From positions 64,001 through 128,000 of the forward strand of contig CAVSBO010000004.1 in the NCBI GenBank assembly GCA_963726195.1: a stretch of 64,000 nt of DNA, read 5' to 3'. Each line of letters opens with the position of its first letter. Within the stretch, counting starts at the first letter, position 1. The DNA comes from Candidatus Thorarchaeota archaeon. Its GTDB lineage: Archaea; Asgardarchaeota; Thorarchaeia; Thorarchaeales; Thorarchaeaceae. Of the stretch, positions 1,317-48,151 are shown one piece after another. Under the pieces are notes generated by a model that saw only the letters and a program-made list of their open reading frames with translations, was not told where the DNA came from and made no database searches. A program made the position numbers and the translations under genes.

Positions 1317-2036
1317 CTAGTCGCTTTCAGTCTTTGCCAGAGTTGTGGCCAAACCTGCTGCCTCAAGAAAGTACCCTGCTAGGGAAATAGAGACTGCGTC
1401 GCCAGTGATAACGTAAGCCAAGGCTCCGGCGATTGGGGGAAGAAGAAGACACATGAGAATCACTGGGTAACCGATTCGTTTCTTCTTTGGCTTTGAGGCT
1501 CTTATCGACGTCACTCCCGCTGATGGGGACTCAAGGGCTTCCATACTTTCCTTGCTTCCACCCTGTCTGCTTCCTAGACACGGTTCGTACGGCGGTTTCT
1601 GTCTTCTAACTGGAATCCAAGCTATTCTGAGATGAATGACCTTCTCTTTGGTCTGTGCGTTCTCATTTGAGAGGACCACACCATAACTACCGTCTCGCGT
1701 GAAGGTGTATGTGTCTTCAAAATCGTTTATTGAAAACTCTCCAATGAGTGCTCGTTGTGCTCTGTATGCCTGCTCTAGTATGTCCTCCGTTGGCAGAAGA
1801 AGGATGTCGAAGGAGCCTCCGTTTTCTTCCCAGGCAGACACTTCGACAGTGGATCCACTTCTTGCCTCGAAGTGGACATCATCCCACTCCCCGGGAGCCA
1901 GCATTATCGTCTGAGAGTATTTGTTCCCTTTGAACTGCCGGACCACGTTCAGCGCTTCACCTCTGGTACTGTTTGCTAGTTGACAGTTGTGATGATTGGG
2001 GGCTTGATCACAGGTCATGTTCTGTAGTTGCAGCAT
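1317..2036 (-). CDS. Hypothetical protein: beta-sandwich-like N-terminal domain, two C-terminal TM helices (true start probably ~1945)
   Basis: Beta-rich segment (EDTYTFTRDGSYGVVLSN), hydrophobic C-terminus, GAGGTGA RBS-like motif near 1960. Confidence 0.6.
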   Translation of the reverse strand: MLQLQNMTCDQAPNHHNCQLANSTRGEALNVVRQFKGNKYSQTIMLAPGEWDDVHFEARSGSTVEVSAWEENGGSFDILLLPTEDILEQAYRAQRALIGEFSINDFEDTYTFTRDGSYGVVLSNENAQTKEKVIHLRIAWIPVRRQKPPYEPCLGSRQGGSKESMEALESPSAGVTSIRASKPKKKRIGYPVILMCLLLPPIAGALAYVITGDAVSISLAGYFLEAAGLATTLAKTESD

Positions 2037-2039
2037 ACG

Positions 2040-2060
2040 TTTATATGCTATATCACATTA
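2040..2060 (+). promoter_or_regulatory. TATA-like box followed by ATATCACATTA, upstream of wHTH paralog 1
   Basis: TTTATATG at 2040 and ATATCACATTA at 2050-2060; the identical 11-mer lies upstream of paralog 2. Confidence 0.55.
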
Positions 2061-2085
2061 GAATATAGGAGTTAATGGAACAACC

Positions 2086-2736
2086 ATGAGAACAGCATTC
2101 GAAGTGCCACCGAAAGAAGGCGATATATTGGTGTGGTTGCTAGAACATGGTCACAATATTGCGTACCAGATAGCGAAATCCTCGGACCTAAAGCAGAGTA
2201 CAGTTTACGCGAATCTCTCGAGACTCGAACAAAAGAGAATGGTAGAATCAAAGGAACTTGAGGGCAAGAACAAGACGAAGGGAGAAAAGGAATATGCTCT
2301 CACAGTTCAGGGTCTTGCCTATGCTTTCATAGAATCTGCAAGGCGAAAGAAATGGAGTCCAAAAGCAGACACGTGGGCATATCTTCTTCCTCTCATATTC
2401 GGGAAATGGCAGCTTTTCGTAGACGGTGGATTTGAACACGATATGCAGGAACGTCTTGTGTCGACTAGCTATTTCTTCATCAGCATGTATGTTTGGGGTG
2501 ACGATGATCTGAAAAGAGAAACAGCAACAGACAGGTTTCAGTATTCGTTCTATGCTTTGAATGATGAGGCATTAGATGAGGAATTTCCTAAAGAACTCAA
2601 GCAGTTGAGGCGATTATACAGAATCTCTGCCAAGGACAGAGAAATACATCACTTCATCACCCAATACTTGAACAATGAGATATCGCAGCTGTCCAAGAAG
2701 AACGGGACCTTCCAGAGCCTAAAGGAAATCCTCTAA
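2086..2736 (+). CDS. Winged-helix transcriptional regulator (TrmB/PadR-like N-terminus), paralog 1
   Basis: IAYQIAKSSDLKQSTVYANLSRLEQKRMV...YALTVQG wHTH pattern. Confidence 0.8.
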   Translation: MRTAFEVPPKEGDILVWLLEHGHNIAYQIAKSSDLKQSTVYANLSRLEQKRMVESKELEGKNKTKGEKEYALTVQGLAYAFIESARRKKWSPKADTWAYLLPLIFGKWQLFVDGGFEHDMQERLVSTSYFFISMYVWGDDDLKRETATDRFQYSFYALNDEALDEEFPKELKQLRRLYRISAKDREIHHFITQYLNNEISQLSKKNGTFQSLKEIL

Positions 2737-2801
2737 CCGCTCGGAGAAGCAACCGAAAACACAGGCCGTGCCTGTCGAAGAGGCTAGGCACTGGGAGGCG
2801 C

Positions 2802-3314
2802 GTGATGCCGCAAAGCTCCTGCCAGGCGACGACCGCTGACTCAAGCAAGGACATTGTACCATTGGATAGTGATGCTCTGGCAGAGGTGTACTCCAACCAC
2901 AAATCCAAGATAATGCTCTCCCATATGCTTGCTTTTCAAGCGTTTCTGCCGGACCTGATCAGGCACGGTTTCATCGATGCTGATGAGCTTCTAAAAGAAG
3001 CAACCCTTACGTTCGAAAGCGAGGCCCTACAAGGGATGGCCGACGATAGTGCGGAGATGGAGGACACGCGTCAGAAGGGCATGTATGTTACGATTTCGGA
3101 AGAGGACGATGGTTCGCTCACGGTTACATCACCCGACGACATGAGTAGAGAAGATACGATGGCCCTCCTTGAGAAGGTGGTGGATTTACATCGCTTCCTC
3201 ACCTTCGTGATTGACACAATAATGAGCAATAAGCAAACACGAAACTCATTCCGAAAAGCTGTGAAGCAGATTATCAGTGAAGCAGCAGCACCAGACGCTG
3301 ACTGCCAAGTGTAG
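2802..3314 (+). CDS. AbiV-like (HEPN) protein, N-terminally truncated or frameshifted
   Basis: NHKSK and RQKGMYV resemble the AbiV H-x-x-K and R-x3-(L/M)YV motifs; N-terminal helices missing. Confidence 0.45.
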   Translation: MMPQSSCQATTADSSKDIVPLDSDALAEVYSNHKSKIMLSHMLAFQAFLPDLIRHGFIDADELLKEATLTFESEALQGMADDSAEMEDTRQKGMYVTISEEDDGSLTVTSPDDMSREDTMALLEKVVDLHRFLTFVIDTIMSNKQTRNSFRKAVKQIISEAAAPDADCQV

Positions 3315-3330
3315 CTGCATTTTACGGTGA

Positions 3331-4098
3331 TCAGAATATCCTCCTCAGGGCCTCGATTCCTTTTTCTGTCATGCGCAAATCAGCTAACACGTCACTTAGA
3401 CGTTGAACTATGAAAGTGCGAAGCTCTGCATCTTTGGCAACAAGAGGATACAATGACTCAAAGAGTCTCTTTTCGAAGTAACGGGATTCAAACAATTCAT
3501 TAACCCACTTACCCGGACCATAGAAGAATTCTGCCAAGGTCCTCCCGCCCTCTTCATCCATGAAGGTTTCTGGAGGTTCTTCGATACTGACATATTTCCA
3601 GAATGATGGGCGAAGCAATTCAAGTAACCATGTGCTAGCCCGGTACAGACGTCTTACTGCTTCGCTTGCCAATCCATTACTAACAAAGATTTCCCACCTC
3701 TCCAGTATCAGAGGTGCGAGATACCCCCAGTTGTCTACAATGGGTTTCCAATTCACCAATGCCAATAGACCGTCTTCGGTTGTGAATGCCTGTACAAGAC
3801 CACGAATGGTCAATTTGTATTGTCGTTCTCCCTTCGTTTGCCTTTTGCCTCTAAGCTTTCGCGAGCTTACCATCTGCTTCTTTTCGAGTCTGGATAGAGT
3901 CACGTAGATCGTGTTCTGTCTCACACCTGAATTGTGGGCTATTCGATAGGCAATGTTGGGCCCGTTTACAAGGAGACATGTCAGGATACTGACTTCTTTC
4001 TTGGGTAACTCGTCGGTGAGGCCGTTAAGCTCCTGTCCCTTCTTGACAAGCCAATCTTCGATGGTCTTTCCTTTCTTTGGCATTTCGGCTCTCAGCAT
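3331..4098 (-). CDS. Winged-helix transcriptional regulator, paralog 2
   Basis: Aligns with 2086-2736 (NIAY.IA..S...Q.T.Y..LSRLE.K.MV...TKGE..Y.LT..GL; W.YL.PLI...W..FV..G). Confidence 0.8.
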   Translation of the reverse strand: MLRAEMPKKGKTIEDWLVKKGQELNGLTDELPKKEVSILTCLLVNGPNIAYRIAHNSGVRQNTIYVTLSRLEKKQMVSSRKLRGKRQTKGERQYKLTIRGLVQAFTTEDGLLALVNWKPIVDNWGYLAPLILERWEIFVSNGLASEAVRRLYRASTWLLELLRPSFWKYVSIEEPPETFMDEEGGRTLAEFFYGPGKWVNELFESRYFEKRLFESLYPLVAKDAELRTFIVQRLSDVLADLRMTEKGIEALRRIF

Positions 4099-23352: not shown

Positions 23353-23935
23353 CTACTTCTTCTTCTTCACCGGTTTCTTAGCAGGCTTCTTCACTGCTGG
23401 CTTCTTAGCTGGCTTCCTCACTGCTGGCTTCTTCAGCTGGCTTCTTGGCTGCTGGCTTCTTAGCCGGCTTCTTGGCTGCTGGCTTCTTCAGCTGGCTTCT
23501 TACTGCTGGCTTAGGAGCTGGCTTGGGAGCTGGAGCCGGAGCTGGCTTGGGAGCTGGAGCCGGAGCTGGCTTAGGAGCCGGGGCCGGTGCCGGAGCTGGC
23601 TTGGGAGCCGGGGCCGGTGCCGGAGCTGGCTTGGGAGCTGGTGCCGGTGTTGGCGCAGGATAGGGCCGAGGAGCTGGCGTCGGTGTTGGCGCCGGATAAG
23701 GCCGAGGAGCTGGCGCAGGTGTTGGCGCCGGATAAGGCCGAGGAGCTGGTGCTGGACCCGTTCCTGGCTTTGGAGGCTCTGAACCCGGCTTTGGAGGCTC
23801 TGAACCTGATCTTTCCATCTTTTCCCAACTCATTTGTATGTGTGGGTTTGCTCCATCTTCCTCTGATTGAGTTGATGAAGCTCTGTCCCGCTCGTAACTG
23901 TGCGTACCCTCTGGATTTAAACAATATGTAGGCAT
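23353..23935 (-). CDS. Pro/Ala/Lys-rich low-complexity protein with H1-like tail (indels; start uncertain)
   Basis: PAPAPK repeats then KKPAAKKPA...KKPVKKKK*; frameshift ~23435. Confidence 0.6.
23356..23810. repeat. Nested coding tandem repeats (36-bp APAPRPYPAPTP x3; 24-30-bp PAPKPAPA units; KKPA units; 21-bp x2)
   Basis: Directly visible repeats such as ggagctggcttgggagc. Confidence 0.9.
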
Positions 23936-24134
23936 GGGCAGAAAACGGTCAAAGACTGGCAGAATTGGCCTCTTTTCCTGCTCATGGCATATCGAAAGAG
24001 CTGCAGATTGGTCACTGCATTCGCGCCGTTGTTACGCTATTCAACATGATTCAACCGCATTCAATACCAGAGGTAGTTGCAGAAAGATAAGAAACCCCGA
24101 TACAAAAACAGCACAGGACGGTTAGGGTTCGAGG

Positions 24135-24317
24135 CAGCCGCCGAAAAAGTGGACGAACTTAGACATGAAACTGCAGGAGCATATGAGCCTCAGTGAGGAA
24201 TTCAATCATTGAGGTTGAAACGACACGAACCTGACCTCGAGGAGTTTGAGCCCAGTGCCGTTTCTGGGCGGACGAAGACTCCTGTGTCCAACTTTGTCCA
24301 ACTGAGAATAAACGGTA
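24135..24317 (+). repeat. Structured intergenic element, copy A (candidate ncRNA or recombination site)
   Basis: Homologous to 47641-47820; shared cccagtgccgtttctggg and agactcctgtgtccaactttgtccaact. Confidence 0.8.
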
Positions 24318-24404
24318 ACTGGCGACCAGAGCATTGCTCCGGCCACCAGCACCGCTTCGACTCGGTAGTTTTGCAGGTAAGGCTTTACAATTCCTACTTA
24401 AAAG

Positions 24405-26432
24405 CTAGACACACCACGCAATCGATGTGGGCGAAGCCTCACATGTCCTATCATACGCGCAAACACGCCTAGGATGATAATGCATGAGCCATAGCACAAT
24501 ATTGAGTGCCAGTGTCCCATCATAATACGAATGGTATTGATGCGTCATGCCGTAATTGTCGAATTCGAAATTGGAACCTGAGATAACGATCCTGCCACCA
24601 CCAGCACCCTGAAGGCATGCCAACACCGGGTCGATGCCGTAGCTTCCCAGAGTGGTTGCGCCGCCGGGGACTTTGATGGGTGCTCCAAGGAAGTCGAAGT
24701 CGTAAACTCCCACGGTCGTGGGATGGGCGGTGACTTGAGTAACAAGAACAGGACTGTCGCCAGAACCAACTCTGCCGTTTGTCAGAGAGAAGTTGGTCCA
24801 GCTGAGGAAATGATTGAGAGAGTGAACATCCAGACTGTCGTTTGATAGAGCAACAACGAGTATTCCACCACCGCTATTGAAGTATTGATGATAGGCTGTA
24901 ATCTCACTGTCTGAAAAGGGCACAGAGAAAATAGATGGGTTGAATGCGTCGCTCTCGTTTAAGTCCCAGACGCATGGGTCCAGCAAGAGGACTGCGTCAA
25001 ACGTGGAGAGAAGACTGTACGTGATTTCCGAGCTGTTGCGCAACTCCGTCACTGAGAACGAGTTCGTTGTGAGCTTCTTGTAGAACTCTCTGAACTGACC
25101 ATAGATTGTGTCAATGGACCAAGTCGTGTGGCTGATGTCGAAGGCTACCCTTGCAGTAGCGTCTGGAGCTGTGAACCGAATTGTGACGCGCGATGTGCCG
25201 CCGGTGTTAGATACGAATGTGATGTTGCCGCTGTAGGATGTGATACCGCTAGCTGGCACAACCACCTTCAGAGGAACAATGCCAACTTGGTTGATAGAAA
25301 CAGGCGAAGACACATTGAATATGCCTGGGGTGCTGCTGGTGATCTTAATGTCGAATGTCGCCTGCGATGACGTGAAGAGCTGCAGATTGAATTCATAGGT
25401 ATCTCCATGGAAGAGGCTCTCGAAATCAATGGGAAGTTCAGCAGGGCTTACGTATGAAATGTTAGGCAAAAGCCCTGTGCTCGAACTACCGGCTATCACT
25501 TGGATTGAATTCGTGAGATCTAATGCGCCAGCGCCAACAACATACTCTGGATAAGGCAGCGTGTCAGCACCTTTCAACAGGGCAGTCATGATTGAACCGG
25601 GTGTGAATGGCAAACTGTTCTTGATGCAGTAGGCGACCAGCTCCGCTGCCGCGGCAGACACACGTGGAGATGAAAAGGATGTTCCATAGTAGGTGGTTGT
25701 CGTCGTCTGAACGTAGCCAGCGGCGGCGATGTCTGGTTTCATATAGCTTGACGCAGTTGGGCCTGTACTTGAGAAGTAGGCCGGGGACCCATTATCATCG
25801 AGAGCCGCGACCGCTAGGCAGTCCATGAATACACCTGGCGACGAGACGCTCGTGCCGGCTCTTCCGCTGTCACCCTCGTTGCCCGCGGCTGCCACAACGA
25901 CGACTCCCTTTGAAAACGCATACTGTATCGCCTTCTCAGTTGGATCATCATAAGTTGGCGTCGAACCAAGGCTCAGATTGATGACACTGCAGTTCTGTTC
26001 GACTGCCCAGTAGATAGCGGCGATTAGTCCCGGTGTGGTGGCTTGTCCATTCGAATCAAGGATTCTTCCATTGACTATCACACAGTTTTGGCTTTCTTGA
26101 GCGATTGTCATAGCCACGAGTGTACCGTGTGGCGTGCCACCGGGCCTGGAATCAGTTGTGGTAAGGTCGCTGGAGGTGTAGCCGTAATCGACCGAAATGA
26201 AGCTCTGCTGCGAGGCGATTCTGCCCTGAAGAACGCCAGAGCTATCCATCCCCGAATCCAAGACTGCAACTCTGACTTGCCCAGTCCCTGACGAGAAAGG
26301 CCCGAGCTGCAAGAGAAGCATTACGCCGGAAGACATCACAATGAGAAGAATCACAAACACTGCCAGGAGCTTGATAGCGGTTGACGAGGACCGTTTGGGG
26401 CCGCTATCTCTGATTTCCCAATAGTTCATCAT
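24405..26432 (-). CDS. Membrane-anchored S8 subtilase + Ig-like + GldG/DUF4350-like domain (site-1-protease-like architecture)
   Basis: VAVLDSG, HGTLVA, AAGNEG, GTSFSSP catalytic motifs; VAFDISH C-terminal domain; N-terminal TM. Confidence 0.85.
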   Translation of the reverse strand: MMNYWEIRDSGPKRSSSTAIKLLAVFVILLIVMSSGVMLLLQLGPFSSGTGQVRVAVLDSGMDSSGVLQGRIASQQSFISVDYGYTSSDLTTTDSRPGGTPHGTLVAMTIAQESQNCVIVNGRILDSNGQATTPGLIAAIYWAVEQNCSVINLSLGSTPTYDDPTEKAIQYAFSKGVVVVAAAGNEGDSGRAGTSVSSPGVFMDCLAVAALDDNGSPAYFSSTGPTASSYMKPDIAAAGYVQTTTTTYYGTSFSSPRVSAAAAELVAYCIKNSLPFTPGSIMTALLKGADTLPYPEYVVGAGALDLTNSIQVIAGSSSTGLLPNISYVSPAELPIDFESLFHGDTYEFNLQLFTSSQATFDIKITSSTPGIFNVSSPVSINQVGIVPLKVVVPASGITSYSGNITFVSNTGGTSRVTIRFTAPDATARVAFDISHTTWSIDTIYGQFREFYKKLTTNSFSVTELRNSSEITYSLLSTFDAVLLLDPCVWDLNESDAFNPSIFSVPFSDSEITAYHQYFNSGGGILVVALSNDSLDVHSLNHFLSWTNFSLTNGRVGSGDSPVLVTQVTAHPTTVGVYDFDFLGAPIKVPGGATTLGSYGIDPVLACLQGAGGGRIVISGSNFEFDNYGMTHQYHSYYDGTLALNIVLWLMHYHPRRVCAYDRTCEASPTSIAWCV

Positions 26433-26704
26433 TGGATTCACCATCGAGTCACAGCTCGGGACCTGCCAAACCAATCAATCCATTGTACATGAAGCTGTTG
26501 TTCTGATACAATGCGGTCCACAGTGGAGCGATTGCATTTGAAAGGACCAACCGCAAGCGCGTTCGGAAGCCGTCGACCTGCTCAAAAGAAGCTTCAAAAG
26601 GTGGCCAGAGGAGGCCGAGTACGTTTTGGACTCCACAGAACATGTTACAAGTTGATTTATCTGGAAAAGGGCAGTCGAAGTGCTCAATCAACGGGGAACT
26701 CATC

Positions 26705-46902: not shown

Positions 46903-47313
46903 CTACGCCTCCAGAGACTCATTCAGGTAGTTCTCAATGTAGGTTTTCCAGTCCGGATATAACGTGAGGACGGTCTCAACAAATCGTAGCCAGCATTCCT
47001 CATCTTTGACATAGAGCAGTTTTCCGTCCCTCACAACTCGAAAGCAGAGAGACAGAGGTGCTGAGTTAAGCAGTGTTATGTCTGTCTTCTGACCGGCCTC
47101 TGAGTCGAAAAGCCCCAAGAGATCTTTGAAGATGGGCGCCCATCGTTCCTCAGGACTGTGGACAAAAACCCCGATGTCCAAATCACTCATTGCATGAGTA
47201 TGGCCTGTTGCTGCAGAACCGAACAGAATGATGAAATCGACTTGGTCACCAAGCAAACCCAAGACCAATGTCACGATTGAGTCTAGTCGCTTCTTCAGTT
47301 CCAGGAGAACCAC
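46903..47313 (-). CDS. mntA: MNT nucleotidyltransferase antitoxin
   Basis: LFGSAATG...SDLDIGV. Confidence 0.88.
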   Translation of the reverse strand: MVLLELKKRLDSIVTLVLGLLGDQVDFIILFGSAATGHTHAMSDLDIGVFVHSPEERWAPIFKDLLGLFDSEAGQKTDITLLNSAPLSLCFRVVRDGKLLYVKDEECWLRFVETVLTLYPDWKTYIENYLNESLEA

Positions 47314-47640
47314 ACTCCTACGTGCTCGGGATTCTGTCCTGCGCGTCTGTATTTATGCACGGCGGTTATGCTTGCTCGTCCACTCGTCTGCCGGCAGTAG
47401 TAGTATGCTGGTTCCGATAGTAGGATCTCACATAGTCCATGTATGACGTCAGTCAACCAACGGTTAAGACATCTTGGTCAGGCTCACGTATTGGAGCGTA
47501 AGTGAAGCGAAAGAATGTCAATTGAATCACCACCTCTCGTAATGGCTGACTACATATTACGAAGCTTATCTGCCGATGACAAGCGGCCAGATGCCCGTAG
47601 CATAGCCTTCCTACAGAGCTCGTCCTTCAAGGGTATGCAA

Positions 47641-47820
47641 CAGCTGCGTAGAAGCTGGACAATCTTGGACATTTTCGAGTAGGGGCTTAAATAGCTTGAA
47701 CCAGACTGCTCTTTGAGGCTAACTCGACACACACCAGCCTCAAGGAGTGCGACCCCAGTGCCGTTTCTGGGAGGGCAAAGACTCCTGTGTCCAACTTTGT
47801 CCAACTCACAATGAACGGTA
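47641..47820 (+). repeat. Structured intergenic element, copy B
   Basis: Homologous to 24135-24317, same orientation. Confidence 0.8.
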
Positions 47821-47833
47821 TCAACTCAATGAT

Positions 47834-48151
47834 TCAGGTCATCGCTACGAAATCGGTACACCTTAAGCCGGGCGCTATCTCCACCGCGCTGCTTTCGTGT
47901 ACTGGTTCCATGTCGCTGGCTATCTTGTGGATTCTCTTGACGACCAGAATCTTGGTCTCACCTAGTGGCGCCACTTCCAGCTGAACTGTATCACCTATGT
48001 CGAAATCATCGCGGTCAGTGTAGGCATCGATCTTAACCTTCACCACAGTCCTGTTTTCTGTTTCCACAGCAATGAATCCGTACAGCGCGGGCGGATTGCC
48101 GAACCGACCGAGCTGACTCGATACTACGACACCACTTAGTATTGTGTTCAT
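47834..48151 (-). CDS. Small OB-fold-like hypothetical protein
   Basis: G.V...YGFIAVE...IGDTVQLEV. Confidence 0.55.
   Translation of the reverse strand: MNTILSGVVVSSQLGRFGNPPALYGFIAVETENRTVVKVKIDAYTDRDDFDIGDTVQLEVAPLGETKILVVKRIHKIASDMEPVHESSAVEIAPGLRCTDFVAMT

Follow-up and report, generated by a model that had tools for sequence, protein, structure and literature searches.

Short intergenic repeats of a Thorarchaeota genome as probable gene-less derivatives of an IS607-family transposon carrying a TnpB omega-RNA scaffold

Introduction

What is the structured ~190-nt sequence that lies between genes at two places in one stretch of Thorarchaeota DNA, and what does it belong to? The stretch, referred to below as the window, comprises 64,000 nt of contig CAVSBO010000004.1 from the Candidatus Thorarchaeota archaeon assembly GCA_963726195.1, and a preliminary description made from its letters had singled out positions 24135-24317 (copy A) and 47641-47820 (copy B) as an unrecognised non-coding RNA (ncRNA) or a mobile unit structured as single-stranded DNA (ssDNA). 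We conclude that both copies are very probably non-autonomous, protein-less derivatives of an IS607-family transposon, which encodes a serine-recombinase TnpA and TnpB, and that they carry the scaffold of a TnpB omega RNA. Of the preliminary description, the mobility and the structured RNA module are retained, whereas the module becomes the omega RNA of tnpB and the ends are IS607 ends of the double-stranded DNA (dsDNA) type. The evidence comes from a repeat family, ends held in common with tnpA and tnpB, a covarying RNA structure, a position-locked TATA box and co-occurrence with a TnpB subfamily.

The two copies belong to a dispersed repeat with sharp boundaries

The homology of copies A and B was confirmed, since they could be aligned over ~190 nt, and a 19-mer (TGTCCAACTTTGTCCAACT) and an 18-mer (CCCAGTGCCGTTTCTGGG) were each exact in both copies and present exactly twice in the window, against a chance expectation of ~0.03-0.05. 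The scope of two copies was too narrow. Searches of the assembly (2.9 Mb, 19 contigs, 89% complete) returned 34 matches with BLAST and 30 with iterated nhmmer, and the element proved to be a dispersed repeat with 19 full-length and ~11 partial copies. When 18 copies were aligned with their flanks, similarity was lost sharply before (A)GGG and after ACGG(T), and no target duplication was seen in the flanks. These limits place the start of copy A 10 nt earlier than the proposed 24135, and its end at 24315:

24125..24315, + strand: copy A, the whole gene-less mini-transposon (GGG...AACGG), nhmmer profile positions 1-192; flanks diverge sharply on both sides in 18 copies
47631..47818, + strand: copy B, the whole element, homologue of copy A

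Each copy keeps a left end, an archaeal TATA box, a ~108-nt omega-RNA scaffold and a right end embedded in the scaffold. The copy A locus was also found on contigs of two peat metagenomes, where breaks or loose ends fell at 24133 and 24316-24318 and depth was 10-20x higher over 24215-24336; depth and loose ends therefore indicate a dispersed repeat with the boundaries given above. The joint of an empty site was not seen among these metagenome DNA contigs at the copy A locus. Mobilisation by TnpA is suggested indirectly, by flanks that differ for every copy and by multi-copy depth and boundary loose ends.

The ends are shared with tnpA and tnpB and have IS607 anatomy

The partial copies connect the repeat with two genes. 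Those from the 5′ side are left ends (LEs; first ~45-75 nt of the element), and one of them lies ~35-45 bp before the start of the sole IS607-type serine recombinase gene in the genome (locus L009, 1550-2176), whose product has Resolvase, HTH_17 and MerR domains and reaches 174 bits with the model NF033518 ("IS607 family transposase"), for which the cut-off is 110. Those from the 3′ side (last ~65 nt) all lie at the 3′ ends of open reading frames (ORFs) with the TnpB/Cas12f TNB domain PF07282, and the overlap between repeats and such 3′ ends spans the 3′ 65-110 nt of the repeat. In these tnpB ORFs the RuvC-III motif HADINAARNI is located just upstream of the repeat part, and the TGA stop lies inside CAATGAACGG. 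Since the 3′ end and stop codon of tnpB fall within it, the right part of the repeat is the right end (RE) of a tnpB-bearing element. A complete 3.2-kb LE-tnpA-tnpB-RE element with homologous ends was found in a relative, G032 (locus L099):

375-414: LE (GGGT...CAGCT...TTTGACAAAGTTGGACA)
443-1048: tnpA
1989-3533: tnpB frame
3464-3568: RE/RNA module

An 8.15-kb element in the genome under study (C3:854969-863119; L009 1470-9620) consists of LE, tnpA, cargo, a split tnpB and RE.

The termini of the short copies were examined in the 18-copy alignment. G occupied each of the three left-terminal positions in 14-16 of the 18 copies, A preceded them in 12, and the right terminus was ACGG; IS607 elements end in GG and insert at GG (PMC6188088; 10.1101/2023.11.20.567912). 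The parts of the two ends are as follows:

24125..24127, + strand: left terminus GGG, within which lies the crossover dinucleotide GG; an A stands before it, and together they make up the (A)GGG junction, predicted to be the side of the transposon-associated motif (TAM)
24135..24140, + strand: CAGCYG box of the left end (CAGCCG in copy A, CAGCTG in most copies), conserved in the 18-copy alignment
24149..24165, + strand: left-end subterminal repeat GTGGACGAACTTAGACA, an inverted copy of the right-end TGTCCAAC motifs and a probable TnpA binding site
24285..24303, + strand: right-end direct repeat TGTCCAAC-TT-TGTCCAAC(T), probable TnpA binding sites within the RNA linker
47641-47646, + strand: CAGCTG box of copy B
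47655-47671, + strand: LE repeat of copy B
47788-47805, + strand: RE repeats of copy B

The CAGCYG box is also present in the LE upstream of tnpA in both L009 and L099, and the left-end subterminal motif recurs ~45 bp upstream of the serine tnpA start at the same two loci. The left end holds an inverted pair of TTGGACA motifs, and the short direct repeats of the right end are of a sort typical of IS607 ends (PMC6188088). The arms of an imperfect inverted repeat are set back from the left end by 24 nt and from the right end by 14 nt, and there are no terminal inverted repeats. According to Chen et al. (PMC6188088), IS607-family elements terminate in GG, insert without duplicating the target, and have short direct repeats as well as an imperfect inverted repeat that is subterminal and not equally far from the two ends; all four features are found in the mini-elements. 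Because their ends are common with tnpA and tnpB, and because the end anatomy fits IS607, the ~190-nt copies are read as gene-less, internal-deletion derivatives of the IS607 family. The preliminary description had held that a match to a known insertion-sequence end would remove the novelty, and the IS607 ends largely do so.

Movement as ssDNA would make the copies palindrome-associated transposable elements (PATEs) of the IS200/IS605 type, moved by a Y1 (HUH) transposase that recognises hairpins. The subterminal hairpins and the TnpB-family partner would suit this, omega-RNA PATEs are known for IS605 (10.1101/2023.03.14.532601), and an ssDNA-structured unit is what the preliminary description had proposed. 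However, no Y1 transposase (PF01797) was found in this genome, while control genomes gave matches; the left end stands directly upstream of an IS607-family serine transposase both here and in G032; the termini are GG, with no TTGAT-like TAM; and the hairpins occupy the middle and right part of the element instead of one per end. Since IS607 elements move as dsDNA via a serine recombinase, and since no Y1 transposase was found, ssDNA movement is not supported, and we regard an origin of this type as very improbable.

Several other classes of element were considered and rejected. The copies resemble a classical MITE (a miniature transposable element with inverted repeats) only in being short, gene-less and multi-copy, as the inverted repeat is subterminal and there is no target-site duplication. 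Integron attC sites or attP arm-type sites were set aside because there is no integrase and the copies are dispersed, and Tn7-like ends because the termini are not TGT/ACA and there is no TnsB.

Other derivatives of the longer elements were noted in passing. The cargo of C3:854969-863119 consists of a 312-aa ORF together with one of 1223 aa on the opposite strand. An ORF of ~1150-1220 aa that converges on tnpA was seen again at 6 of 9 loci from relatives (also L094-L098 and L100); it has no Pfam or NCBIfam match and may be a conserved passenger gene. In G013, a right-end/RNA-module piece is directly preceded by a fragment of tnpA covering residues 1-117 (G013:C81:166257-166758; L037/L081); this is another deletion derivative, unlike the ~190-nt form.

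The right part of the element encodes a covarying RNA module

Both hairpins of the preliminary description were found at the positions it had given them, and with the pairing between the hairpin-2 loop and the right terminus they make up the following module:

24209..24240, + strand: hairpin 1 (8-bp stem, conserved CGACAC in the loop), predicted RNA 5′ end
24241..24282, + strand: hairpin 2, outer stem GGAGU/ACUCC, inner stem CCCAG/CUGGG, loop UGCCGUUU
24258..24263, + strand: 5′ strand of the pseudoknot (CCGUUU), in the hairpin-2 loop; covaries with 24310-24315
24310..24315, + strand: AAACGG, the pseudoknot's 3′ strand, and right terminus ...ACGG; the TGA stop of tnpB-linked copies is here (CAATGAACGG)
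47713-47743 and 47744-47785, + strand: hairpins 1 and 2 of copy B
47761-47766 and 47813-47818, + strand: pseudoknot strands of copy B

Hairpin 1 is formed in copy A by pairing of 24209-24216 with 24233-24240 (TTGAGGTT/GACCTCGA), with CGACAC at 24221-24226 in the loop, and in copy B by pairing of 47713-47720 with 47736-47743 (TTGAGGCT/AGCCTCAA). At the DNA level, hairpin 2 of copy A consists of GGAGT (24241-24245) with ACTCC (24278-24282), and CCCAG (24251-24255) with CTGGG (24264-24268), which enclose the loop TGCCGTTT (24256-24263).

Covariation was scored in 55 distinct homologues from about 30 genomes, in an alignment fitted to the model hairpins. Overall, 94% of alignment cells were paired, compared with 80% in shuffles and 26-51% with slid partners; cells changed on both sides numbered 131, against 26 ± 4 in shuffles (0 of 500 shuffles as high), and 17 of the 24 pairs had compensatory changes. 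In hairpin 1, where pairing was said to be kept through changes, all 8 pairs changed on both sides and 90% of cells were paired. The corresponding values for hairpin 2 were 8 of 10 pairs compensated and 96-97% of cells paired, and its inner stem and loop were present in every tnpB 3′ end examined. Because the alignment had been fitted to the hairpins, a structure-blind rerun was made: 26 diverse copies were aligned with MAFFT, and RNAalifold found both hairpins again, 11 of 17 pairs being compensated.

Since the pseudoknot was not in the alignment model, the evidence for it is unbiased. At the pair next to the hairpin-2 stem (alignment columns 89-142), UG was found in 24 cells, CG in 15, UA in 10 and GC in 4, with 2 unpaired. 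Copies with C at the loop position always had G at the 3′ partner, and the four GC cells came from copies with the loop ...GUUG and the 3′ end CAACGG. A swap from U-A to C-G was seen in a copy from the same genome (C5:228365), and one from C-G to U-A at the outermost pair in two tnpB-linked copies. Three of the six pairs are invariant or nearly so and thus uninformative. The preliminary description had paired the loop with downstream sequence over eight positions; the six pairs 24258-24263/24310-24315 stand, while the last two (24316-24317) lie outside the element and are unsupported.

The outer imperfect stem of the preliminary description fared differently. It corresponds to a real 17-bp imperfect inverted repeat (24149-24165 against 24285-24301) in which 87% of cells pair, but only 1 of 16 pairs was compensated, and one-sided changes or mismatches are seen along it. 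Its right arm is kept in tnpB-linked copies that have no nearby left arm, and the left arm would not be in the RNA, since it is upstream of the TATA box. This stem is probably the subterminal inverted repeat of IS607 ends, that is, DNA bound by TnpA rather than RNA.

G-U cells exceeded A-C cells both in the hairpins (62 vs 24) and in the pseudoknot (26 vs 10), an excess that favours the + strand of copy A, which is the sense strand of tnpB, and that agrees with the strand chosen at the outset, antisense to the flanking genes. The structure was taken from comparative evidence, not from single-sequence or full-length folds; copy A folded alone gave a different minimum-energy structure (z = -2.6), and RNAalifold on the full 190 nt paired the inverted repeats. 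No Rfam family matched at the gathering threshold across the window, and the element together with two tnpB loci gave chance-level matches only (E >= 0.4), RAGATH-18 being without a match too. The view that this is not a known RNA family holds, and tRNA or other known RNA was rejected.

The module is the probable omega RNA of a long TnpB lineage

To what protein does the module correspond? The RNA model matched 16 of 18 tnpB 3′ ends from other genomes, and the other two were cut by contig ends. Across 20 tnpB 3′ ends, the module lies on the tnpB strand, overlaps the 3′ end of the gene and ends at the right boundary, with similarity stopping after ACGG(T). A pseudoknot that uses nucleotides just 5′ of the guide is a hallmark of TnpB and Cas12 guide RNAs (PMC10097598; PMC11061315). 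Because of this hallmark and the match of tnpB 3′ ends, we take the module to be the omega RNA of this TnpB lineage.

The partner in this genome is a 722-aa open frame with PF07282 (C16:26999-29164; L011 1000-3168, + strand), and several broken copies are present elsewhere. It belongs to a lineage of ~700-720 aa with conservation over the full length and 46-75% identity (homologues P0001-P0120), whose members with a source name are nearly all from Thorarchaeota, with one from Promethearchaeota. The RuvC triad (D489, E598 and D691) and four zinc-ribbon cysteines are invariant in 22 homologues, and by these residues the partner looks active. Only its last ~240 residues resemble TnpB/Cas12f, and the homologue profile matches TnpB and Cas12f structures; for the N-terminal ~480 aa, no similarity was detected in Pfam, NCBIfam or PDB sequences. 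The score against NF040570 was 61 bits, below the cut-off of 100, and the partner is therefore a divergent member. A left end was looked for upstream of the intact C16 tnpB and was not found.

We also observed that the genome (G000) contains 35 PF07282 matches of several subfamilies, versus one IS607-type tnpA and no Y1 transposase; it is heavily loaded with tnpB-only elements.

A TATA box lies at a fixed distance from hairpin 1

The region upstream of hairpin 1 contains a promoter-like sequence, and the region downstream of the right terminus would supply the guide:

24180..24187, + strand: TATA box position, degenerate in copy A (CATATGAG)
47686-47693, + strand: TATA box of copy B, CTTAAATA
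24316..24336, + strand: predicted guide segment, copy-specific flanking DNA; similarity among copies stops here

Of 42 distinct non-coding copies, which come from many genera, 25 have a TTTAWATA octamer (at most one mismatch) that starts 25-29 nt, mostly 27-29 nt, before hairpin 1. One further copy had its sole octamer match at 34 nt, and 16 had none, several of these with a weaker TATA-like sequence at that place. The 20-odd nt between octamer and hairpin vary freely, and only 10% of shuffled sequences had the octamer anywhere in the upstream region. This spacing is that of an archaeal TATA-box promoter with its start site about hairpin 1. The fixed distance indirectly supports transcription from hairpin 1, and the position-locked box makes the non-coding copies look like independently transcribed omega-RNA genes with flanking DNA as the guide. 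The predicted RNA would comprise the ~108-nt scaffold followed by flank. By analogy with TnpB omega RNAs, in which the guide begins at the transposon boundary (PMC8612924; 10.1101/2023.11.20.567912), 24316..24336 is the candidate guide of copy A.

Could the copies be dead DNA instead, relics that move or moved through their IS607 ends, with hairpins and pseudoknot as leftovers of the tnpB 3′ end that are not used as RNA? Some genomes have many copies and no detectable partner TnpB, the TATA box of copy A is weak, and within-genome covariation is modest, with 11 cells changed on both sides against 5 in shuffles. Among the public sequencing runs listed as containing this DNA, none is recorded as RNA, and transcription is predicted for all copies. 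On the other hand, hairpin 1 is not plain inherited coding sequence, as its 8-bp stem is compensated at 8 of 8 pairs across genera in non-coding copies, G-U outnumbers A-C by 62 to 24, and the TATA box keeps its distance while the spacer drifts. None of the three is expected of unselected DNA. We therefore consider it unlikely that the copies are relics, and retain the reading that they are mini-elements carrying a probably functional omega-RNA scaffold.

The module and its TnpB co-occur in one archaeal family

The distribution of the module was evaluated with a covariance model built from the last 114 nt, which include hairpin 1, hairpin 2, the TGTCCAAC repeats and the terminus. Of 41 genomes from the same archaeal family, 30 had matches, about 570 in all, with 2 to 65 copies per genome and variable neighbours. 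BLAST with the whole element matched 25 of 36 genomes of the family and none of 24 genomes from 17 other families of the phylum. All 11 of the 41 genomes without the RNA module were also without this TnpB subfamily, whereas it was present in 24 of the 30 module-bearing genomes; because the genomes are related, this co-occurrence is not an independent statistical test.

An independent family of host ncRNA genes (a regulatory small RNA, a ribozyme or a riboswitch) that is merely repeat-like would also display a conserved structure, a promoter-like box, intergenic copies and no match in Rfam. It would not be expected to form the 3′ ends of tnpB ORFs with the same sequence, to share its ends with a transposase gene, to break contigs, or to range from 2 to 65 copies per genome beside variable neighbours, and we hold this explanation to be extremely improbable.

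In two genomes with the module, G003 (14 matches) and G013 (29 matches), no TnpB of the partner subfamily was detected at E <= 1e-30. The copies there are either orphaned, or the tnpB gene is unassembled.

Genomic context of copies A and B

Both copies are intergenic and antisense to their neighbour genes:

23405-23935, - strand: left neighbour of copy A, a 176-aa ORF whose start faces copy A
24405-26474, - strand: right neighbour of copy A, an S8 subtilase gene whose stop faces copy A
46903-47313, - strand: left neighbour of copy B, a nucleotidyltransferase gene
47834-48151, - strand: right neighbour of copy B, a 105-aa ORF

Three same-genus genomes were searched for the corresponding sites, and an exact empty site was found for neither copy A nor copy B. 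The left flank of copy B had no match in them, and only the right flank of copy A was kept. In two of these genomes that flank is conserved from the exact element boundary, without the element, as ...GTT-GG-TAACTGG.... At the locus orthologous to the left flank of copy A (window 23936-24124), two same-genus genomes have a 411-aa MFS transporter gene (G001:C12, L084 1948-3183; and G003:C97), which is missing here, and this spot has therefore been rearranged.

Two ORFs called mechanically over copy A (24209-24472, + strand, 87 aa; 24206-24352, - strand, 48 aa) begin in the repeat and extend into unique flank, and should not be annotated as genes. Elsewhere in the genome, three mini-elements are clustered within 2 kb (G000:C8:160746-162708), and a pair in opposite orientation (G000:C3:337130-337717) has its left ends facing, ~210 bp apart. 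Clustered or facing mini-elements could drive inversions or deletions.

Discussion

How do these elements compare with systems already described? They resemble members of the IS607 family (IS607 of H. pylori, IS1535, archaeal ISC1926 and CboIStron) in that a serine-recombinase TnpA with an N-terminal MerR-like helix-turn-helix adjoins the left end, tnpB is at the right end, and the GG termini, subterminal imperfect inverted repeat and short direct repeats occur without terminal inverted repeats or target duplication. CboIStron also has an RE ending in ...CGG opposite an LE junction ...GGG (TCGG vs TGGG). In contrast, the window copies lack both genes and measure ~190 bp instead of ~2-3 kb, a TATA box lies inside the mini-elements, their TnpB partner is ~720 aa long instead of ~390-430 aa, autonomous-looking copies often include a ~1200-aa cargo ORF, and there is no group I intron.

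Gene-less elements with omega RNAs are an already known kind. IS605 PATEs carry omega RNAs, and their use in trans has been proposed (10.1101/2023.03.14.532601). Like those PATE-like IS200/IS605 elements (Meers et al., 10.1101/2023.03.14.532601) and stand-alone OMEGA omega-RNA loci, the present copies are protein-less and multi-copy, have LE and RE in common with tnpB-bearing elements, bear a guide-RNA scaffold at the right end, and presumably depend on TnpA and TnpB supplied in trans. They differ in using a serine recombinase, dsDNA and GG targets in place of Y1 HUH, ssDNA and a TTGAT-type TAM, and in having an archaeal host with a TATA-box promoter and a different RNA family. What is new is the IS607-type variant, the archaeal promoter, the long TnpB partner and the Thorarchaeota host.

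Among guide RNAs, the ISDra2 omega RNA has a 116-nt scaffold of four stems, with a pseudoknot adjacent to the guide (PMC10097598), and the right-end RNA (reRNA) of the IS607 element ISFba1 is 187 nt long, with a RAGATH-18 core, two pseudoknots and the TAM AGGAG (PMC11061315). In both, as here, the scaffold shares the strand of tnpB, overlaps its 3′ end and stops at the transposon boundary, and nucleotides bordering the guide on its 5′ side take part in a pseudoknot. In length the scaffold is similar to the ISDra2 core, and the TAM predicted here is G-rich, as for IS607 TnpBs. Unlike these RNAs, the present module shares no sequence or Rfam-model similarity with them, only two hairpins and one pseudoknot were detected, and the predicted transposase-binding motifs are in a single-stranded linker.

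A mechanism consistent with these features can be proposed at two levels. At the DNA level, the sole IS607-type TnpA would bind the TGTCCAAC/TTGGACA motifs at both ends, and would excise and insert the element as dsDNA via exchange at the GG dinucleotide, without target duplication. At the RNA level, transcription would start about 25 nt past the TATA box, at hairpin 1, and proceed through the right end into the flank, so that each copy would yield an omega RNA with its own right flank as guide, and the ~720-aa TnpB encoded elsewhere would bind this RNA in trans. The mini-elements have no protein genes, and TnpA as well as TnpB must therefore act in trans. After excision, TnpB would cut the empty joint, where the (A)GGG motif adjoins the guide match, whereas the occupied site has ACGG and would be spared, and repair from a sister copy would restore the element. 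Such retention or homing logic was demonstrated experimentally for TnpBs of IS605 and of the IS607-type CboIStron (10.1101/2023.03.14.532601; 10.1101/2023.11.20.567912). In CboIStron, whose TAM is TGGG and whose RE reads TCGG, the occupied site is spared through the -3 position (10.1101/2023.11.20.567912); the (A)GGG vs ACGG junction logic may parallel this.

Several points weigh against this interpretation. For the mini-elements we infer transcription, TnpB binding in trans, the TAM and homing from sequence comparison, and the predicted 5′ and 3′ ends of the RNA and the predicted guide length have the same basis. The TATA box of copy A is degenerate (CATATGAG), and copy A may therefore be weakly expressed or silent. 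The sequence ...GTT-GG-TAACTGG... found in sister species can be taken only as an approximation of the empty site of copy A, given a left flank that has diverged or been rearranged. The alignment used for hairpin covariation was fitted to the model structure, which the structure-blind run mitigates, and one pseudoknot pair has a C-A mismatch in six sequences. A counterpart of hairpin 1 is clear only in some tnpB-linked copies, within the coding sequence (GGACAT...ATGTCC in L010-L012; GACCT...AGGTC in L106 and L108), and is not general; upstream of hairpin 2, mini-element RNA and native omega RNA may therefore differ, and the former may not suit TnpB. Six module-bearing genomes have no detectable TnpB of the subfamily, G013 with its 29 matches among them. 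Finally, one tnpA and one intact-looking tnpB (C16:26999-29164) are all that was found in this 89%-complete genome.

Promoter-bearing mini-elements outnumber the nuclease gene by roughly 20:1 to 60:1. A speculative extension, which we think improbable though worth stating, is that they form a distributed library of trans-acting guides for the ~720-aa Asgard TnpB, some copies having been co-opted by the host for binding or repression at neighbour genes or for targeting invading DNA. If that were true, they would represent an archaeal, transposon-borne step towards a CRISPR-like or TldR-like system.

The reading of the copies as gene-less IS607 derivatives explains a conspicuous structured repeat across Thorarchaeota genomes, the copies of which break assemblies, and for annotation it means that they should be masked as mobile elements and not entered as novel ncRNA genes. 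It also defines a guide-RNA family outside Rfam, with a compact scaffold of ~108 nt made of two hairpins and a pseudoknot, and ties this family to a TnpB lineage that is long, divergent and confined to Asgard archaea; for genome editing, RNA and protein together make a candidate new TnpB system. The notion of a gene-less element with nothing but a guide RNA would in this way be extended from the Y1-type IS605 to the serine-recombinase IS607 family, and to archaeal promoters.

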